From positions 75,020,001 through 75,084,000 of the forward strand of contig OZ260662.1 in the NCBI GenBank assembly GCA_965285935.1: a DNA stretch of 64,000 nt. Reading direction: 5' to 3'. The position numbers and the translations under genes are program-made. Origin of the DNA: Ophelia neglecta (taxonomy: Eukaryota). The notes under the pieces were generated by a model. It did not search any database and was not told where the DNA came from. It saw only the letters and a list, made by a program, of their open reading frames with translations. Below are positions 21,216 to 30,400 of the stretch, piece by piece (the stretch's first letter is position 1; each line of letters opens with the position of its first letter).

Positions 21216-22944
21216 GTTAAGAGCATTAAGGTAGGGTCAAACCCATTTTAAATCCCCCCCGCGAATACTCCCACAATAATAACGTTGATGCTTAACAAAA
21301 AGAGTGTAGGTAAATTGCTGTGAAATAGCCTACCATTGCTGAAAGAGACTTTCTCCATTTCTCCGGATTCCAGAGGGAAATTTGATTAAGTCGAATGAGT
21401 ATATACTAAAACAGCACGCGTAATGGAACTCTTACGTGTAGCTAATCGCGTTAATATACTTAGCGAAGGACAAATGCAGACATGATCCACACACTTCCCA
21501 AGTACATTTAAACCCCAGGGGTAAACCTAGGGTCTTGACCCTAAAATAGCATCCGCAAGAAACATGAGGTGGCGTATGTCCCATTATCACTTCACTTAAA
21601 TTAGCCCATGATGATCATGCAATCTTTTAGCAATACACCACTACCATACAACTTGGTAATGCTGTGCTTCAAAAGAATGGTGATAATTCACTTAATACTG
21701 AGTATCTTCTCTAGACTGGCTTAGGTGGGCAAACGCCACCGCAATCCTTTGTTAAAAGACCAGTACTAATTTTCTTGGAAAGTCGGGTAGGCGAGTATAA
21801 CTAGCTGGAAAATGCATGGGGACGACGGGGGCTGAGCCACAGCATAGACAATTGGACTAAAGACTCAGCACCATTATCACCCATCCTAACTAGTACTCAA
21901 TCCCGATGTCTGGACGAATAGGCAACAGAGAGCGACTGGGCTCTGACGGTGCAAATTAGTTTCAGCACCCAACGATCTAGTACTCGCGATAGTCCGGCAA
22001 TTGGGCAAAACATAGGGGAAGGCGTAGGAGGTCATGGGTTTTTTGGTAGTATGCAGATCGCTTTAAAACTTGGCTGTCGCCTCGGTTTTATGACCTCTTA
22101 GTACCACCAGAAACCCATGCTATATCTCAAACATGTTGTTAGCATCGGTACTCTGCTCGATATAAACCTCAGCTGTCGCCTCGATCGGTTAATATCTACT
22201 CGATAACCACCCGAAACCCATGCTACAACTAAGACAAGTTTGACATCAATTCCTCCTTGAGTTCGTCTTTCGCTAGTATCGCCGGTTTAGACACAACTAG
22301 CTTCCCTAAGTGGAAAGGAGGCCTTGAATCTGTTGATGGAACTATCTGGACTTGTTGGGATTCTTCTCTAGGCCGATGACCTTGTCCCTAATCAATCGTA
22401 TTTGCCCGCATTGGGGGACATTCAAAATTGACGAATCGATGTACCATTACAATTAGTTTACGGTCTATCAAGTGAGTAGCCAGGATCGAACTGCTCGGCC
22501 TATATGCCATGCCGGCGATGTCTTGTCTTACCCCTTGGGCTTCTACCATTGATTACCCTTTGTTCGCTATGCCTGAGGAGCAATCTTAACACAAGAATAA
22601 CCTAGTTCAGCTTCAATCCGTCAATTACTGTTGTAATAAGTAGTTCGGTGTTGTGTGTATTATCTCCATAACACTGCCGGCAAGGGAAAGTCCAGGAGGA
22701 CAGTCTGCTTGATGTTTAGATTTTTCTAACAAGCATTTAAATCTAAAGATTTCCCTTGTTTGTCATTAAATCCTTAGAATGTCGCCTAAGAATGGACATT
22801 TCCGTGGTAGCATATTTCACGATTAAACCCTAGCGACCTTATAATTGTCCAACTGGGATCCTCCATATATAGATTCATTACATGTAAATCAAATGACTAT
22901 AACACAGACTATACACTTTCGAACTGGCACCACAATTGAACCAT

Positions 22945-22983
<39 letters not shown>

Positions 22984-23044
22984 GTTTATTTCTACAAGAT
23001 TACATGCAACTTACAACGGACATTCCAGATACAATTCGTGACAT

Positions 23045-23233
23045 AAGGCAAATAGCAAAAGTATTGAACCAAAAATAATGTAAATATTGAACCAAAGAAA
23101 TAATGAGCTAGTAAGTACTTGAACTAGAACTATTAATAACAAAGGCAAATAACTAAAACTACTGAACACAAAGTATTGTAAATATTGAACACAAGAGATA
23201 ATGAGTTAGCAAGTACTTAAGATCAGACTAATT
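23045..23233 (-). repeat. ~97-bp diverged tandem duplication in the LINE 3' UTR
   Basis: AAGGCAAATA...TGTAAATATTGAAC...ATAATGAG(C/T)TAG(T/C)AAGTACTT occurs at ~23045-23134 and ~23142-23233. Confidence 0.8.
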
Positions 23234-23341
23234 CTATACATGCATACACTTGATTATTCCTTAGCTGACATACGTAAACATCTAAGTACGCAGACACATG
23301 CTCGTACATATACTTATATGTTGGCACCCATCTGTCCGAGG

Positions 23342-26300
23342 CTATTTCAGTCTCAATATTTTTTCTCGATCAAATAGAATTGTTAGATTTGGATACATAT
23401 CCCTTGTTCCGAATCTAAACTTGACAATGCTAAGTTTTCCTATTAATATAAGATAGTTGGGAATACGATTTAATATAGAATATGGGACAAACCCTAATAT
23501 AACATTCTCTTCTGTGAGTAATACCCTCTTATTTAGCAACACAGAGATTTCCTGTTCTATAGAATTCCACAATTTTCTGACTCGATTGCAGTAATAAAGC
23601 ATATGATCTAGTGATTCAACCACATTACACTCACTGCACATAGGAGAAACTGATTTACCTATCTTAAATAAATATTTATTATTTGGGAAAATATTGTGGA
23701 GAATCTTCCACTGAAGGCTTATAATACGTGTTTCACTACACACATGCCTAGCTAGTAGAAATGTATGTGAATCAACTGCTTTATCCCCATATTTTTCAAC
23801 CCAGTATTTTGTTATATGTGTTTTAAAATCAGGCATGTTAGATAATATTTCATTCCTAATTAATTTAGAATCTGTATTTTGTGTATATTTTAATTGTTTA
23901 AAAAGGATGTTGCGATTGCACTTGTTTTCAAATAATCTGTCTAGAGCTGGACGATTAAGTGCATTTCGAACAGCATTTAATTCCCACGAATTCAATGTGT
24001 GAGGTGGGAGTTTCTCCAAAACCATCTCCTCACAGAGGTTACCATTACTTAAAATATCACTAAGATAAACTATTTCATGGTCAATCCATCTTTTAATAAA
24101 TAAAACGCTTCCCCTATATTGAATATACCGATTATTGAACAAAACAGTGGATATGTAATTTTCTGTCACCTGATTTTCTGTCACCCATAATTGCAGAAGG
24201 TGGAGCCAGTAGCTTGGCTCATCCTTCGTCAGACCTCTAAATTTACCAAAAGAAACATAGCTGTTAAAAACACTTAGATTTTTTCCGAGTCTGTCATAAA
24301 AAGACTGTGGTATAATTTTCCAAGATCTATTTTCATTATCTAACAATTTGCTTACCCACTTAAAGATCATCTGTTTAAACATAATATGCATATCTATCAT
24401 GCCAAGTCCCCCTTCGTCGTAATTCCTGATCAGTATACTACGGGATACTCTCTCTGTCGCTGTAGTCAACTGTTGCCGCTGATTTGCCCACAGAAATTTA
24501 TAACATATTCTGTTTATCCTTACAAGCACATTTTCAGGTATAAAGATACTTTGCATTACATAATTAAATTGGCTTGCTAAAAAAGTTTTAACAATCTGGA
24601 TTTTCCCTATAATTGTGAGATTTCGTTGGATCCATTGTCTGGTTATATTTTCACACTTTTTTATTCTATAATCAAAATTTTCGTCACATTCATAGGAATT
24701 CTTTGTATTAGACAGATATATACCTAAAACTTTTAGTTGATTTTCGGGAAATATTTTCCATTTTAAACCTAAAGTTGTTTTTCTTCGAAATTTCCAGCAT
24801 CCTAACCAGATAGCTTCACTTTTTGACCTATTCAATTCTAATCCTGAGATAAAGAAAAAAGATTCTACCACCCGAATGAAGTTAATTAATGACTCTTCAT
24901 CGGAAACCAGTCCTGTACAATCATCTGCGAACTGTAATAATTTAGATGCGATGGCATTTTGATTACCTTTAACTTTTATGGGGATGCCCTTGATTTCTTG
25001 AGTCTGTCTTATTTTGCAAGATAATACTTCCAACCCCAAGATAAAAATCAATGGTGAGAGAGGGCAACCTTGGCGGATACCCCGTCGTAACTCGATCGGC
25101 CGAGTAAACCAGCCACTATGATTTACTATAGCCTGGGTCTTAACGTTTAGAGTTTTGATCCATCGAATAACAGATGGACCAAAATTGAAGATCTTCAAAC
25201 ATTTAAACATATACTCTTTTGAGATGCTGTCAAATGCCTTTTTGTAGTCTAAGGCTACTAGAATTCCAGGAATATTTTTAATTCTAGTGTATTCCATTAC
25301 ATCTTCCACAGCCCGAATTACCTCTGCGGCAGAGCGACCCTTCATAAAGCCAGCCTGGTCATTAGATATTATTTTAGATATGATTTTCTTTAGACGATTT
25401 GCTATTACCTTTGCAGCAATCTTATAGTCTATAGGACTTAAAGAAATAGGCCGCCAATTTCCTAGCAGTTCTTTTGATAGACCTTTTCCTTTATGCTGTA
25501 AGGAAATAATGCTTGTCCTTTGATTCAGGGACATGTGCCCTGTATTGTAAGCATAATTAATAGATTGAGTAACCATTTCGCCAATGTCTGCCCAAAAAAC
25601 TTTATACCACCCCGCAGTGAGACCATCTATGCCGGGGCTTGAATCATTTTTCATGCTTTTCAAAGCTCTGCTACACTCTTCCCTTGTAATCTCCCCCTCA
25701 CAGGATTCCCTCTCCTCGTCGGTGAGACGGGGAACATTTATATTCTCAATAAATCGGTCTAATCTTTCGTCAGAGAAGGCAATGTTTTTGTCATAAAGTT
25801 TAGTGTAGAACAAGTGCAATTCATTCAAGATTTCGTCTTTACCCTCAGTTCGTGATCTGTCATCTTTCTGCAAAGAATTTATGGTTTTTCTTATTCCACT
25901 GCTCCGCTCTAACCCCAAAAAATGCTTATTATTTTTTTCCCCTTCACAAATCCATCGATATTTAGATCTCAGTTGAGCTCCCTTTGCTAGCTCCATTTCA
26001 TATATTCCTATTTCCTTATTATACTTATTAATCTGTGTTTTTATATATTCATTAGTTGGCGATTTTAAAAATTGTTTATTAGCTTTTTCCAATTTGTTTT
26101 GCAAACCAGAGTACTTTTGTCTCTTTTCCGAAGCTCGTTTTTTACTGTATCTAAGAGTTACTTGACGGACTTTATTTTTTAATATTTCAAATTTATAGTC
26201 GGGTGATACTGTTTCATAATCACTGTTGACGGATTTTATAACTTCATTTATTTCCTTTAGATAATCTGCCTCCTTTAATAACATATTGTTAAATTTCCAA

Positions 26301-27037
26301 TACGAGGGTCCGCGTGAACTAGTTTCAATGCCAATTTCAATAACAACCCCCCTATGATCTGTCATTGGTACGTCAATTATTTCACAACTATCTATTTTCA
26401 TTAATAAACTGTCATCAGTAAATATATAGTCTAAACGCCTAGCTATATTCTGTGATTTGTGCCTCCATGTGTAATCTTTCTTATGAACATGGAATTTACG
26501 CCAAACATCATTTAATAGATCAGTAGCATTATTGAAATGTAAAATTTCCCTCTTTGGGTGCATTAACCCAGATACAGTATCCAAGTTAGACCTCGTACAA
26601 TTAAAATCTCCAGTCATAATTAAATAGTATTCTGAATAGTTTTTCATGAGATCTTGTATCACTGTATCTAGCGAAATAAAAAACTGTATTTTTTCTGCTG
26701 ATCTTGTTGGTGCATATATATCAATAAAAATGTAATTTTGGTTATTGTGTGTAAGTGTAACTGTTATCATTCTTGGATTATTAACAACTATTTTGAGATG
26801 ATCATAATCAAAATTTTTTCTTATTAAAATAGCTTCCCCGCAGCTATGTTCTGATCCTGGTGCATATATTATTTCCCCTCCCCATTCGAACTTCCATTGA
26901 CTAAATATTTCTTCGGTAATAAAAGTTTCTTGCATGAGAATAACATCAAAATTGTTTCTCTTCAGAAAGTTAAACACCGTTTTCCTTTTTAGCCTTCTTC
27001 TCAATCCTCTACAATTAATAGTTAGAGCTTTTATCAT
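23342..27037 (-). CDS. LINE ORF2p: APE-like endonuclease + reverse transcriptase + C-terminal CCHC zinc knuckle (1231 aa)
   Basis: EN motifs TINCRGL, LMQET, GDFN, RLDYIF, TDH. L1/Tx1-type WKFNN and EGEK..HFLGLE. RT motifs SPGIDGL, WRPISL, LDYKKAFD, GIRQGCPLSP, QFADD. Zinc knuckle CSEC..ESLDHMLYYC. Confidence 0.98.
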   Translation of the reverse strand: MIKALTINCRGLRRRLKRKTVFNFLKRNNFDVILMQETFITEEIFSQWKFEWGGEIIYAPGSEHSCGEAILIRKNFDYDHLKIVVNNPRMITVTLTHNNQNYIFIDIYAPTRSAEKIQFFISLDTVIQDLMKNYSEYYLIMTGDFNCTRSNLDTVSGLMHPKREILHFNNATDLLNDVWRKFHVHKKDYTWRHKSQNIARRLDYIFTDDSLLMKIDSCEIIDVPMTDHRGVVIEIGIETSSRGPSYWKFNNMLLKEADYLKEINEVIKSVNSDYETVSPDYKFEILKNKVRQVTLRYSKKRASEKRQKYSGLQNKLEKANKQFLKSPTNEYIKTQINKYNKEIGIYEMELAKGAQLRSKYRWICEGEKNNKHFLGLERSSGIRKTINSLQKDDRSRTEGKDEILNELHLFYTKLYDKNIAFSDERLDRFIENINVPRLTDEERESCEGEITREECSRALKSMKNDSSPGIDGLTAGWYKVFWADIGEMVTQSINYAYNTGHMSLNQRTSIISLQHKGKGLSKELLGNWRPISLSPIDYKIAAKVIANRLKKIISKIISNDQAGFMKGRSAAEVIRAVEDVMEYTRIKNIPGILVALDYKKAFDSISKEYMFKCLKIFNFGPSVIRWIKTLNVKTQAIVNHSGWFTRPIELRRGIRQGCPLSPLIFILGLEVLSCKIRQTQEIKGIPIKVKGNQNAIASKLLQFADDCTGLVSDEESLINFIRVVESFFFISGLELNRSKSEAIWLGCWKFRRKTTLGLKWKIFPENQLKVLGIYLSNTKNSYECDENFDYRIKKCENITRQWIQRNLTIIGKIQIVKTFLASQFNYVMQSIFIPENVLVRINRICYKFLWANQRQQLTTATERVSRSILIRNYDEGGLGMIDMHIMFKQMIFKWVSKLLDNENRSWKIIPQSFYDRLGKNLSVFNSYVSFGKFRGLTKDEPSYWLHLLQLWVTENQVTENYISTVLFNNRYIQYRGSVLFIKRWIDHEIVYLSDILSNGNLCEEMVLEKLPPHTLNSWELNAVRNALNRPALDRLFENKCNRNILFKQLKYTQNTDSKLIRNEILSNMPDFKTHITKYWVEKYGDKAVDSHTFLLARHVCSETRIISLQWKILHNIFPNNKYLFKIGKSVSPMCSECNVVESLDHMLYYCNRVRKLWNSIEQEISVLLNKRVLLTEENVILGFVPYSILNRIPNYLILIGKLSIVKFRFGTRDMYPNLTILFDREKILRLK

Positions 27038-27222
27038 AATATATCTTTTTGAATAATAGAAGTTAACATACCTGGCACAGAGTCACAAGTGATATATCCA
27101 TAAACCCTAGTTTTGATTTGATAATTATGAGCAAATAGTTTAGAGCAACTCATTTTGTCCAAGTACCATATCCATATATCGTCACCATAAAAATTCAGAG
27201 GGCACATTTTATGATTAGCCAT
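27034..27222 (-). CDS. Putative 62-aa inter-ORF (bridging) peptide of the LINE
   Basis: Its ATG lies just before the ORF1 stop (ATG-GC-TAA) and its TGA overlaps the ORF2 ATG (ATGA). No homology recognised. Confidence 0.35.
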   Translation of the reverse strand: MANHKMCPLNFYGDDIWIWYLDKMSCSKLFAHNYQIKTRVYGYITCDSVPGMLTSIIQKDIL

Positions 27223-27445
27223 CGCCCTTATGCAGTTTAGATTGTTTTTCTATAGGAGTAATTTCTTTTCTCTTTGGTGGCGCCTTTGGAGTCATATAAT
27301 CTCTAATTGCCGTTTGGGCCGAATCCACCTTGGTCTTGTCTTTTTTTTTACTTTTTTTCCTTGTTGCCTTTGTATTTGCCTCTACCTTGGTCCCTGTTAA
27401 GGGCTCGGAGGAATATCCAGGCCCCACATCTGATTGGTCAATAGT
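27215..27445 (-). CDS. C-terminal remnant of LINE ORF1 (cut by the 5' truncation)
   Basis: The frame is open from the element's 5' junction to TAA at 27217-27215. It is Lys-rich and low-complexity (TIDQSDVGPGYSSEPL...RKKSKKKDK...KGDG*) and ends 177 nt upstream of ORF2. Confidence 0.75.
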   Translation of the reverse strand, partial: TIDQSDVGPGYSSEPLTGTKVEANTKATRKKSKKKDKTKVDSAQTAIRDYMTPKAPPKRKEITPIEKQSKLHKGDG

Positions 27446-30400
27446 AGAATTGAACCATCATATCAGTACAAGTGGTATAGTTCTGTGGGCAGGTCCAGAG
27501 CCCGTAAGGCTGTTTTCAATCTGTATAAGTATCTGCATGAATTTGATTTGTATTCGTAAGTCATCAGTTGTTTATTTGAGTCCTAGGTAAGGCGGACAAG
27601 CAATGAAAAAGAACATTCAGAAATATTTATTTCAAATGGAAATAGCATATATCTTCTTTGCTTCAATAGTAGCAACCAGGATAGTTCTCAGTTATTTAAA
27701 TCAAATTTCCTCTTATCATTCTTGTAAAATTTAGCCTAAATGGCCCAAAGAGGATCATGAACATCGTCCTATATAGGTAGAGGCAAACTCGCCTTTTTCT
27801 CAAGTCAAGTACTAACATCCATATCATTTATAATTATGCAAAGCATTATAAAATAACAGGTAATTTCAACCCGTCAGTTCCGATTAAGAACTCTGTCTAC
27901 CATACTTATAAAATGATTCAGTAAAAATGACATTATGGCTATAAATTTATAAATAAACAAGACAAAACTATTATATTACACATGTGCGATACTTCTCATA
28001 TAAAGATAACATTTCTCCAACGCAACAAAAAATTGAACGGATACCCGGCAGACGACACAGAATCATCTAGGGTCAGATCATTGACTTTGTAATGACTCAT
28101 CAAGAAGCGTAAGCTGCTGGCTCACAAACGGAATCCACTATTCATTATGCTCCAACGATTTTGTGACGATAACTAGTGAATAATTGAAATACGAAATCCC
28201 CGGCAATGAACATTATTCAACATTTGGGTCAGTTTAGAAATAGGTTTGATATATCTTGGGCCATTTCTGCCATATACAAGCGCCAGGTTATGACTTACAT
28301 TGCTGATTAAGTGTTTCCCATAGCACTACTTAGTATTCGGATAGCCCCCATTTATCAACGCAATCTGTCAGATAGGGGTCGCCTTATTGATGATATTGCA
28401 TTTGAATGAGGACCTTTTTCATTCGATATGGAATCATCTAATAGCTTAACTATGAGTACCACTGCAACCACAAAGGGAAGAGTAAGGGATATCGCTACCC
28501 ACGAACTTTGTAAAGACAACGTTGCATGAATTTAATCATGCTCCAAACAAACTTTTCTTATCCCTGTCCAACACTCAAGCAATTGAAGCAGTAGGCCCAC
28601 CATCACCTGTGCATGCCTCTTTGGCATAAAAAGAGCGCAGCAGTAGTGATTTAAGAATCAGTCAGGATTGACGGCTGTTAAACGCCTGTTGAGTTGGTTG
28701 GCATGTAGAGGCTAAGATTGCGATTCATGAAATCAAATCTTGAGCGAGCAAATTAATCGCCTAAACCTTATGAAACCCGACTTGAAACGGGCCTCGAACA
28801 TGCCTAGATCTAATGATGAGATAGGTGCAATATCTTACAGCATCGTCTCATACTAGTGCTGTTTCTTCCTAACCAATCAGTGTTTTACCCTACTGTATTT
28901 GATAGAAAATAGAGTGGTAAATGCACTTATGAATAAATACTCTGGGGAGTCAGAGTGGCCAATGTCAGAACATTTGGTTATCCATTGGTTAATATTTATG
29001 AGTGTATAATATTACGCATCACTGCCTAATTGATGGTTATGTAATGTTCCACGAATGATTTAGAACTCCAGAATAACATAACAGCTTTGTGTAGTGGCAT
29101 GACTGGATAGCTTCACACAGCTCGATTGAGCAAGATAGCTTCCAAAGCCTAAGGATGACTTATATTCCACGTAGCATCAGTTTTTCTCGCACTCACTCGA
29201 TATCAATTTCCTCATCGAAGTGTGCCTTAAGGCCAATTACCCAGCAAATTTTTATGGTGCTTTTTATCTTTTTGGACCTATCTTTGATTTATGGAAAAGG
29301 AGAATAAGACCATTAAGTAAAGAATAATTATGCATTTTTAGTTGCAACCACCAGTTACGTCGTGGGCGTGTAGATTAAAATTACAAACAGTGAATCCTTA
29401 TATAATACCTCATAAAAAACATAATTAATTTACATCAAAGCAAAGTGGATCTAAAATAATACTTGGAGTTTCCTATTTTATGTCATACTCATGTAATGCC
29501 GTGGCTAATTATTATCTGAAAATGTTCTGTTTCAGAGGGCGAAAGTTTGCTGAAGAAGGAATGATATATAGGCTATGTAGCACAACATGTACACACTCTC
29601 TTATAATTTTGCCAGCAATTTGTTCAGTTAAGACCTAATAGAAAGATGAATTAGCAGTTCTCGTCTGGGGTCAGTTCTTAGGTAAAACTCGTTTGGTTTG
29701 GGTATTATATGGCAGCCATCACTCCCTACCTCGGTGGTTCAATGTCAAATTGGGTTAGCTCTAAAAATCCAGAAGCCATCTAGAACAGCAAGCAAAATAT
29801 CATCCAATTATTGTAATATAAGAGATGGTATCTCAATACGTGTCTAATGCAACTTGCCGTTGACAACAAGGTTGTTTGGTTTTTACTGTCAGTTTATTCG
29901 ACTGAAGGAATCATCTAGTCGAGTTTGGAGTGTCGGTTACATTTTTGTTGTTTTTGTATTACGCTTTGATGTAATGTTATCAAAAGCATGCCAGGATGGC
30001 TATAAATGCAACTCATTGGAAGGTGGTCAAATGTACCCCAAGTATATGTCAGTGACCGCTTCACCTTATGTCCTGAAATAACTCAATCTTTAATTGTTAT
30101 TTTATTCTCGAAATAGTCATTGAGTTTTCAAGAAGTGCAAATGTTTGAGAACTAGTGGTCTCCCATGATAAATAGTTTTCAAGCCGTGGAAAACGGTTTA
30201 CTAACACTTACACACACAACAAATAATAAAATCATAATTTTGTGAATAAGGAATATTGTTACACATAGATAACGTTCTATAATGTGATTTTAAAGTAAAT
30301 TTCGCTTGAGCTGAACGTTGTCGTCTGCCGTGACAGTCTGCGACAAGCAGATAACATTTCTTCCTAGAACTCCGCGAGGAATAGTTGTATCCTCGACCTG

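Follow-up and report, generated by a model that had tools for sequence, protein, structure and literature searches.

How ORF2 is translated from the bicistronic RNA of a LINE is an open question, and it is sharpest for elements with long spacers between the two ORFs, in which internal ribosome entry sites (IRESs) have been predicted, not shown. A LINE copy in a 64,000-nucleotide stretch of the Ophelia neglecta genome (contig OZ260662.1, positions 75,020,001 to 75,084,000 of the forward strand; the window) raises this question in a particular form, because one small ORF runs through its whole spacer, from the ORF1 stop to the ORF2 start. We asked what this small ORF is, and compared the element with its sister families in the same genome. 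The results suggest a conserved stop-start bridge over which ribosomes likely pass from ORF1 to ORF2 in two rounds of termination-reinitiation, its peptide being a likely by-product; we put the probability of this reading at about two in three.

The window element is an L1-clade LINE

The window holds one copy of what we call family A (Table 1). It is an L1-clade LINE: it has the ORF2 domain set, the poly(A) tail, the target-site duplication, the 5' truncation and the separate upstream ORF1 of RNA-binding type found in that clade, and the best solved-structure match of the family A ORF2 was human L1 ORF2p (E 9e-80). The ORF2 zinc finger scored 23.6 bits against zf-RVT, where the Pfam cut-off is 27.5. 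The window copy retains no more of ORF1 than its final ~77 codons. In full copies ORF1 has 361 aa (copy L018), with two predicted RRMs followed by CCHC knuckles, and the predicted model of the L018 protein matched tandem RRM proteins (best E 8e-6).

Table 1. Features of the family A copy and its insertion site (positions in the window)
Feature	Position	Strand	Basis or remark
Family A LINE copy, 5'-truncated, from inside ORF1 to poly(A) tail	22948..27447	-	no match to other copies above 27448
Target-site duplication, 5' copy, 14 bp	27448..27461	.	sequence of window
Target-site duplication, 3' copy, 14 bp	22934..22947	.	sequence of window
ORF1 3' remnant, TAA stop at 27217-27215	27215..27447	-	frame ends ...KGDG
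Bridging small ORF, 62 codons, ATG start	27034..27222	-	ORF list
First junction AUG-GC-UAA: small ORF opens 5 nt ahead of the ORF1 stop	27215..27222	-	sequence
Second junction AUGA, small-ORF TGA stop overlapping ORF2 start	27034..27037	-	sequence
Inter-ORF spacer, 177 nt	27038..27214	-	A+T-rich; structure z +0.7 vs shuffles
Intact ORF2, 1231 aa: APE endonuclease, reverse transcriptase, C-terminal zinc finger	23342..27037	-	zinc finger below Pfam cut-off
3' UTR: AATAAA at 22990-22985, poly(A) tail at 22979-22948	22948..23341	-	sequence

An ORF1 with RRMs and CCHC knuckles is consistent with the Tx1 group (PMC5203782, available text). Judging from its ORF1 type, family A plausibly belongs to the Tx1 subgroup; the tree made here holds elements of this genome only. 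Many Tx1 families, not all, insert at a sequence-specific target. No such target was found for family A, since the 3' flanks differed among the window copy and those 7 of 14 fetched ends in which the anchor was found. The preliminary description of this DNA had called the element a Tx1/L1-like LINE, and the Tx1 part of that label is plausible from the type of ORF1. Some other copies and relatives showed peculiarities of their own. At L004 and L005 the 5' flanks place family A copies beside or inside long frames that resemble LTR-element genes, the one at L005 with a protease-like DSG motif. One copy, at L219, carries a tandem duplication of its 3' end around the polyadenylation signal, and L015 is a diverged relative in which ORF1 starts ~200 nt before ORF2, that is, an internally deleted element.

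The bridging ORF of family A

The preliminary description reported a 62-codon ORF that fills a 177-nt AT-rich spacer and has AUG-GC-UAA and AUGA at its ends, and each of these details proved exact on re-reading. The spacer is 69% A+T, with 5, 0 and 3 stops in its three frames. With both ends held fixed, 163 of 20,000 dinucleotide shuffles left the bridge frame free of stops, and the chance of any single-ORF bridge within -14..+12 nt was 3.6% for the family A copy alone. For one copy this is a modest effect, suggestive though not strong when a whole genome is scanned.

The element had been described as a single copy; in fact 11 copies of family A, 98-100% identical, span the small ORF, and 10 of them keep the frame open. 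The exception carries a TAG, and the sole indel is an in-frame 9-nt deletion in one copy. Because the family is so young, retention within it cannot prove selection. Among inherited changes, taken as those found in at least two copies, the bridge had 0 synonymous and 2 non-synonymous ones, vs 22 and 5 for codons 1-730 of ORF2 (P 0.05, small numbers).

Sister families carry coupled bridges or chains

For the first family search the endonuclease domain was run against the genome; 150 of 1033 candidates were scored and 90 loci were examined, and the loci were grouped into families by eye and with a tree. In the tree, A-N fall on a single branch (support 94/95), and their endonucleases share 33-50% identity with that of A. 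Families M, AA, Y and H are each known from one or two copies. Table 2 lists the junctions of the sister families, given as the position of the AUG relative to the ORF1 stop and then that of the bridge stop relative to the ORF2 start.

Table 2. Junctions in the sister families of A (nt)
Family	AUG	Bridge stop	Arrangement
B	-11	-6	44 aa bridge, in frame with ORF2
C	-5	-4	chain: 30 aa, then an 11-aa ORF that starts 1 nt past its stop and ends at -4
D	+3	-17	49 aa bridge, in frame with ORF1
F	-5	-2 or -21 (two variants)	single bridge
G	-5	-11	61 aa bridge
H	-14	+4	single bridge
I			chains, or one 67-aa frame (variants)
J	-5	-4 or +4	single bridge
K	-1	-26
L			7-codon bridge over 8-nt spacer
M			no bridge
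N			6 codons over 21 nt

Across the families found in this genome, one bridge is present in A, B, D, F, G, H, J, Z and R, chains of two or three links are present in C, E, AD, AE and one I variant, and ORF1 and ORF2 touch directly, with no bridge, in P and Q. The long-spacer families have spacers of 87-288 nt. Bridge lengths over all families span 7-89 codons, and the majority of families have a bridge that shares its frame with neither ORF1 nor ORF2.

We scored each long-spacer family for a chain of AUG-started frames from ORF1 to ORF2, under a strict (-14..+12 nt) and a relaxed (-14..+26) tolerance. Families L, N and O (spacer <80 nt) and loci with no recognisable ORF1 end or ORF2 start were omitted from this test and from the cover test below. 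Among the first 12 long-spacer families, after sight of which both tolerances were picked, a strict chain was present in 9 vs 2.3 expected (P 5e-6), or in 8 when family F was scored by its other variant (P 9e-5), and a relaxed chain in 11 vs 4.7 expected. These counts are only partly independent, because the families share ancestry, though the peptides of their spacers can no longer be aligned. Relaxed chains also recurred copy by copy where the ORF1 end was recognisable: B 6/8, C 7/8, D 5/5, E 5/6, F 3/4, G 4/4, I 3/3 and K 9/9. The relay reading withstood the check proposed in the preliminary description: bridging frames, or chains of them, coupled at both ends are kept in the sister families.

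Among the five long-spacer families with other types of ORF1, R alone passed the strict test, with a 56-codon bridge running from UAA-AUG to AUGA, whereas T, U and W had no bridge and V was ambiguous. Families P and Q, also of other ORF1 types, couple ORF1 straight to ORF2 through AUG-GA-UAA and AUGA motifs. The spacers of T (L102, L116, L118) and U (L110, L117) are long and pyrimidine-rich or made of AT repeats, with no AUG near the ORF1 stop. Family W has at least 11 near-identical copies within <1 Mb (G000:C5:105.75-106.65 Mb; L119, L173), a clustering that suggests a target-specific element in a gene array.

New families under a fixed criterion

With the criterion set beforehand, a search with an ORF1 protein was performed; 150 of 230 candidates were scored and 40 loci fetched, yielding seven new families. 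The strict test was passed by 3 of the 7 vs 0.7 expected (P 0.013) when the first in-frame AUG of AB was taken as its ORF2 start, and by 4 of the 7 (P 0.0008) when that start was set by homology; the relaxed test was passed by 4 or 5 vs 1.8 expected (P 0.056 and 0.008). Family Z has one 89-codon bridge across 258 nt, from AUGA to AUG-GC-UAG, AB has an 86-codon frame that ends in UAAUG on a methionine homologous to the start of AC, and AD and AE have chains. Over the first and the new families together, M, AA and AC failed both tests, and D, K and Y passed the relaxed one only.

Spacer cover gave a second measure. Over all 19 long spacers, the mean fraction covered by one AUG-started frame from the ORF1 stop was 0.82 vs 0.30 in shuffles, the highest mean among 500 shuffled sets being 0.47. 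Cover reached at least 80% in 12 of the 19 diverged long-spacer families with this ORF1 type, where 1.5 were expected.

Some of the new families carry the same ORF1 type before an ORF2 of ~1030 aa, which is 24% identical to that of A over the RT region. This ORF2 occurs in four of the seven, lacks zf-RVT, and is presumably CR1/L2-like by its motifs. The ORF1 module thus appears to be shared between LINE clades. The combination was seen at loci L126-L130, L131, L136-L138, L141, L143, L149, L151 and L152, and further at L154-L156, L160 and L176-L179.

Relatives from other organisms

Scans of metagenomes with the ORF1 alignment gave no match, and none was found in viral contigs; the endonuclease alignment gave three loci, two of them with an ORF1. 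Two elements of another organism with the same ORF1 type, L225 and L227, have A-rich spacers of 97 and 105 nt, and neither has a bridge. An A-rich tract in the spacer is common to L225, L226 and L227, with no bridging ORF in any of the three, and is possibly a different way across. Nine ORF1 homologues are known elsewhere as proteins, with no DNA context, and two of them end in NG like those of families F and J. A NADAR domain (PF08719) lies within ORF1 of families G and R (L090:815-1618 (-), L109:947-2176 (-)) and in homologues elsewhere (P0005-P0007).

Positions are conserved, not the peptide

Of 22 families, 16 have an AUG that overlaps or directly adjoins the ORF1 stop; for the ORF2 stop, after which no further ORF comes, the count is 2 of 20 (Fisher P 4e-5; AC, whose frames are broken, is left out of the ORF2 control). 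The AUG-GC-UAA type of geometry, with the start 5 nt before the stop, accounts for 9 of the 22. The ORF1 endings that supply the AUG differ (DG, NG, HV, KG, KK, KT). Where ORF1 ends in DG or NG, a T-ending codon was used in 7 of 7 cases; ORF1 overall uses the T-ending codon at 51%.

The peptides, in contrast, showed no kinship. When 18 bridging peptides were compared pairwise, the best of 153 pairs had P 0.003, which is the chance level. The family A peptide had no Pfam match, no homologue of 34-109 aa among 5.8 billion proteins, and no relative elsewhere in the genome, where the three weak matches all lay outside LINE ORFs. Since the peptides are unrelated to each other, it is geometry and not a protein that is conserved: what is kept is the position at which the frames start and end. 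In family J a 5-nt deletion common to two copies shifts the bridge stop from -4 to +4, and the coupling at the ORF2 start survives it.

Family E (L063, L064, L065, L068, L084, L085, L164) shows a further variant of the second junction. Its ORF2 frame, whole at 1229 codons in one copy, has no AUG before residue ~70, well within the endonuclease, in 6 of 6 copies, and an in-frame stop lies 3 codons upstream of the ORF2 body in 5 of 6. The stop of the last bridge overlaps a CUG as C-UGA, and this CUG, overlapped by the upstream stop, is likely the ORF2 start of the family.

RNA features at the junctions

We looked for signals known from other systems. Neither junction of family A has the sequence UGGGA (motif 1 of TURBS) within 100 nt; over all families it was present at these distances in 3 of 22 and 2 of 22. 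In pseudoknot-free folding the spacers had no extra structure compared with shuffles (z +0.7 for A and between -1.5 and +1.6 over 19 families), nor did the 120 nt after the family A ORF2 AUG contain a SART1-like structure (z +1.2). No splice acceptor was apparent in family A, where the 30 nt preceding ORF2 lack a YAG and no pyrimidine tract is present; families Y, J and AA do have a YAG just before the ORF2 AUG. Contigs from three sequencing runs aligned with even depth and showed no joints, which bears on neither expression nor splicing.

The proposed relay and its alternatives

In the proposed relay, a fraction of the ribosomes that terminate at ORF1 would restart on the adjacent AUG. These would translate through the spacer, which post-termination ribosomes would otherwise cross poorly. 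Their second termination would fall next to the ORF2 start, and some of them would begin again there. ORF2 protein would thereby remain scarce and tied in cis to the translation of ORF1. The double attenuation of RT output put forward in the preliminary description would hold or not according to the comparison made: a relay may lower ORF2 output against one reference and rescue it against another.

We weighed this relay against four other explanations. The strongest of them, though still unlikely, holds that the bridge is a historical by-product: the spacer would be left over from coding sequence, be it the tail of ORF1, the leader of ORF2 or captured DNA, its frame still open but irrelevant, and ribosomes would get to ORF2 by scanning, a route suggested for human L1. 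That the B bridge is in frame with ORF2 and the D bridge with ORF1 fits such an origin, as does the absence of a bridge from some families and from both foreign elements, and in families as young as these (98-99% identity) retention says little. Most bridges, however, are out of frame with both ORFs, begin with an AUG at the ORF1 stop, end at the ORF2 start and encode unalignable peptides, and a remnant would not become re-coupled at both ends in many geometries. Somewhat less probable is that the bridge encodes a third protein, as the preliminary description had offered as an option, here in the form of a small, fast-evolving, family-specific accessory peptide expressed by stop-start coupling. 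Coupled starts would indeed express peptides, and there are bridges as long as 62-89 codons, the peptides of Z and AB having hydrophobic ends; but the peptide searches and pairwise comparisons came back empty, lengths range down to 7 codons, some spacers hold chains instead, and the inherited changes in family A, few as they are, show no synonymous excess in the bridge as they do in ORF2.

The remaining two explanations we regard as very improbable. ORF2 might be translated independently of the bridge, by an IRES, by spliced or trans-spliced RNA or from an internal promoter, with the bridge serving RNA stability or damping. The IRES-like elements predicted in vertebrate L1 spacers (PMC5381506, discussed below) and the YAG in three families speak for this; the unremarkable folding of the spacers and the want of an acceptor in family A speak against it, and it leaves the AUG at the ORF1 stop unexplained. 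Recoding, in which frameshifting or readthrough would fuse ORF1, bridge and ORF2, is the least probable of all. It could draw on the open stretches upstream of the family A starts (9 codons before the AUG in the bridge frame, 15 in the ORF2 frame) and on the AUG-less ORF2 of family E, yet the offsets vary between families at the first junction (-5, -1, +3, -11) as well as at the second (+1, +4, +5, -2, -4, -6, -11, -17), the junction AUGs would be unneeded, and the in-frame stop of family E stands in the way.

The relay as we prefer it has a cost of its own: because UGGGA, a folded spacer and a downstream structure are all absent in family A, there is no known tether for reinitiation after the long ORF1 or the 62-codon ORF. 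The bridgeless elements L225 and L227, the families that failed one or both tolerances, the single strict pass among other ORF1 types and the dispensable spacer of human L1 also count against the relay. If it is true, serial reinitiation can be efficient after long ORFs with no known tether. More tentatively, and at somewhat less than an even chance, LINEs with long spacers may use a general, sequence-free ribosome conveyor, namely an open frame coupled at both ends that would be rebuilt repeatedly, be portable with the ORF1 module between clades, do without TURBS or even an ORF2 AUG, and determine the ORF1:ORF2 ratio through how many junctions it has. The relay idea is directly testable, because this genome offers a natural series of direct overlaps, a 7-codon bridge, bridges of 36-89 codons, chains and a non-AUG start. 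It also predicts coupled frames hidden in long L1, Tx1 and CR1 spacers that are usually annotated as non-coding.

Comparison with known systems

Stop-start junctions drive reinitiation in viruses and in SART1, and some viruses tolerate gaps of up to 29 nt (PMC5972666); tolerance of non-AUG restarts is a mark of termination-reinitiation (PMC5972666, PMC4091050). In mammals, reinitiation after short uORFs usually requires fewer than 30 codons (PMC5972666), a limit that the 62 codons of the family A bridge exceed and the links of the C, E, AD and AE chains respect. By the features examined here, the family A bridge would work like termination-reinitiation, although not of the TURBS or the SART1 type. 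With the TURBS of caliciviruses and influenza B (PMC5972666) it shares a stop and a restart within a few bases. Non-AUG restarts are tolerated in those viruses; family E here has no usable ORF2 AUG and a putative CUG start. Unlike family A, those viruses need the UGGGA motif 1 upstream, so the calicivirus parallel drawn in the preliminary description extends to the stop-start overlap only; and their downstream ORF is a functional protein, whereas here it would be a connector. SART1, with its UAAUG coupling (Kojima et al. 2005, via PMC5972666), provides a stop-start overlap in a non-LTR retrotransposon, and families P and Q likewise couple directly. It has one junction and a downstream structure, whereas here at least two junctions stand in series, the ORFs are 177 nt apart in A, and no downstream structure is seen.

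Human L1 (Alisch et al. 2006, via PMC4091050 and PMC5972666) also has a bicistronic RNA, and its ORF2 needs the upstream ORF to be completed and tolerates loss of its AUG; its spacer, however, has 63 nt and is dispensable, whereas those described here have 87-288 nt and are mostly spanned by an AUG-started frame. In vertebrate L1 elements with long, A+T-rich spacers, which resemble ours in these respects, 32 of 36 long spacers were predicted to contain IRES-like elements, reinitiation across a long spacer was thought inefficient, and the effect on ORF2 translation was called unclear (Boissinot and Sookdeo 2016, PMC5381506). An IRES was proposed there, and a bridging frame would be a different solution.

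Our literature search, which took in few subscription papers, found no conserved doubly coupled bridging ORF in LINEs, and none is described in the available parts of PMC3894237, PMC2241872 and PMC5203782. The closest precedent is lineage 1 of the megabat L1 (Yang et al. 2014, PMC4072516), which has a long spacer with small ORFs. Deleting all spacer AUGs cut its retrotransposition 3.3-fold and shuffling the spacer 8.8-fold, which was read as small spacer ORFs aiding reinitiation at ORF2; on these data, a spacer with AUGs seems to give more output than one of the same length that has none, and a long spacer seems to reduce it overall. The available text on the megabat element describes neither a doubly coupled single frame nor conservation across families, whereas the bridge geometry described here recurs among ~20 families and two ORF2 clades. 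That small spacer ORFs aid ORF2 is therefore already in print for the megabat L1 (PMC4072516), and what appears to be new here is a conserved, doubly coupled bridge over many families.
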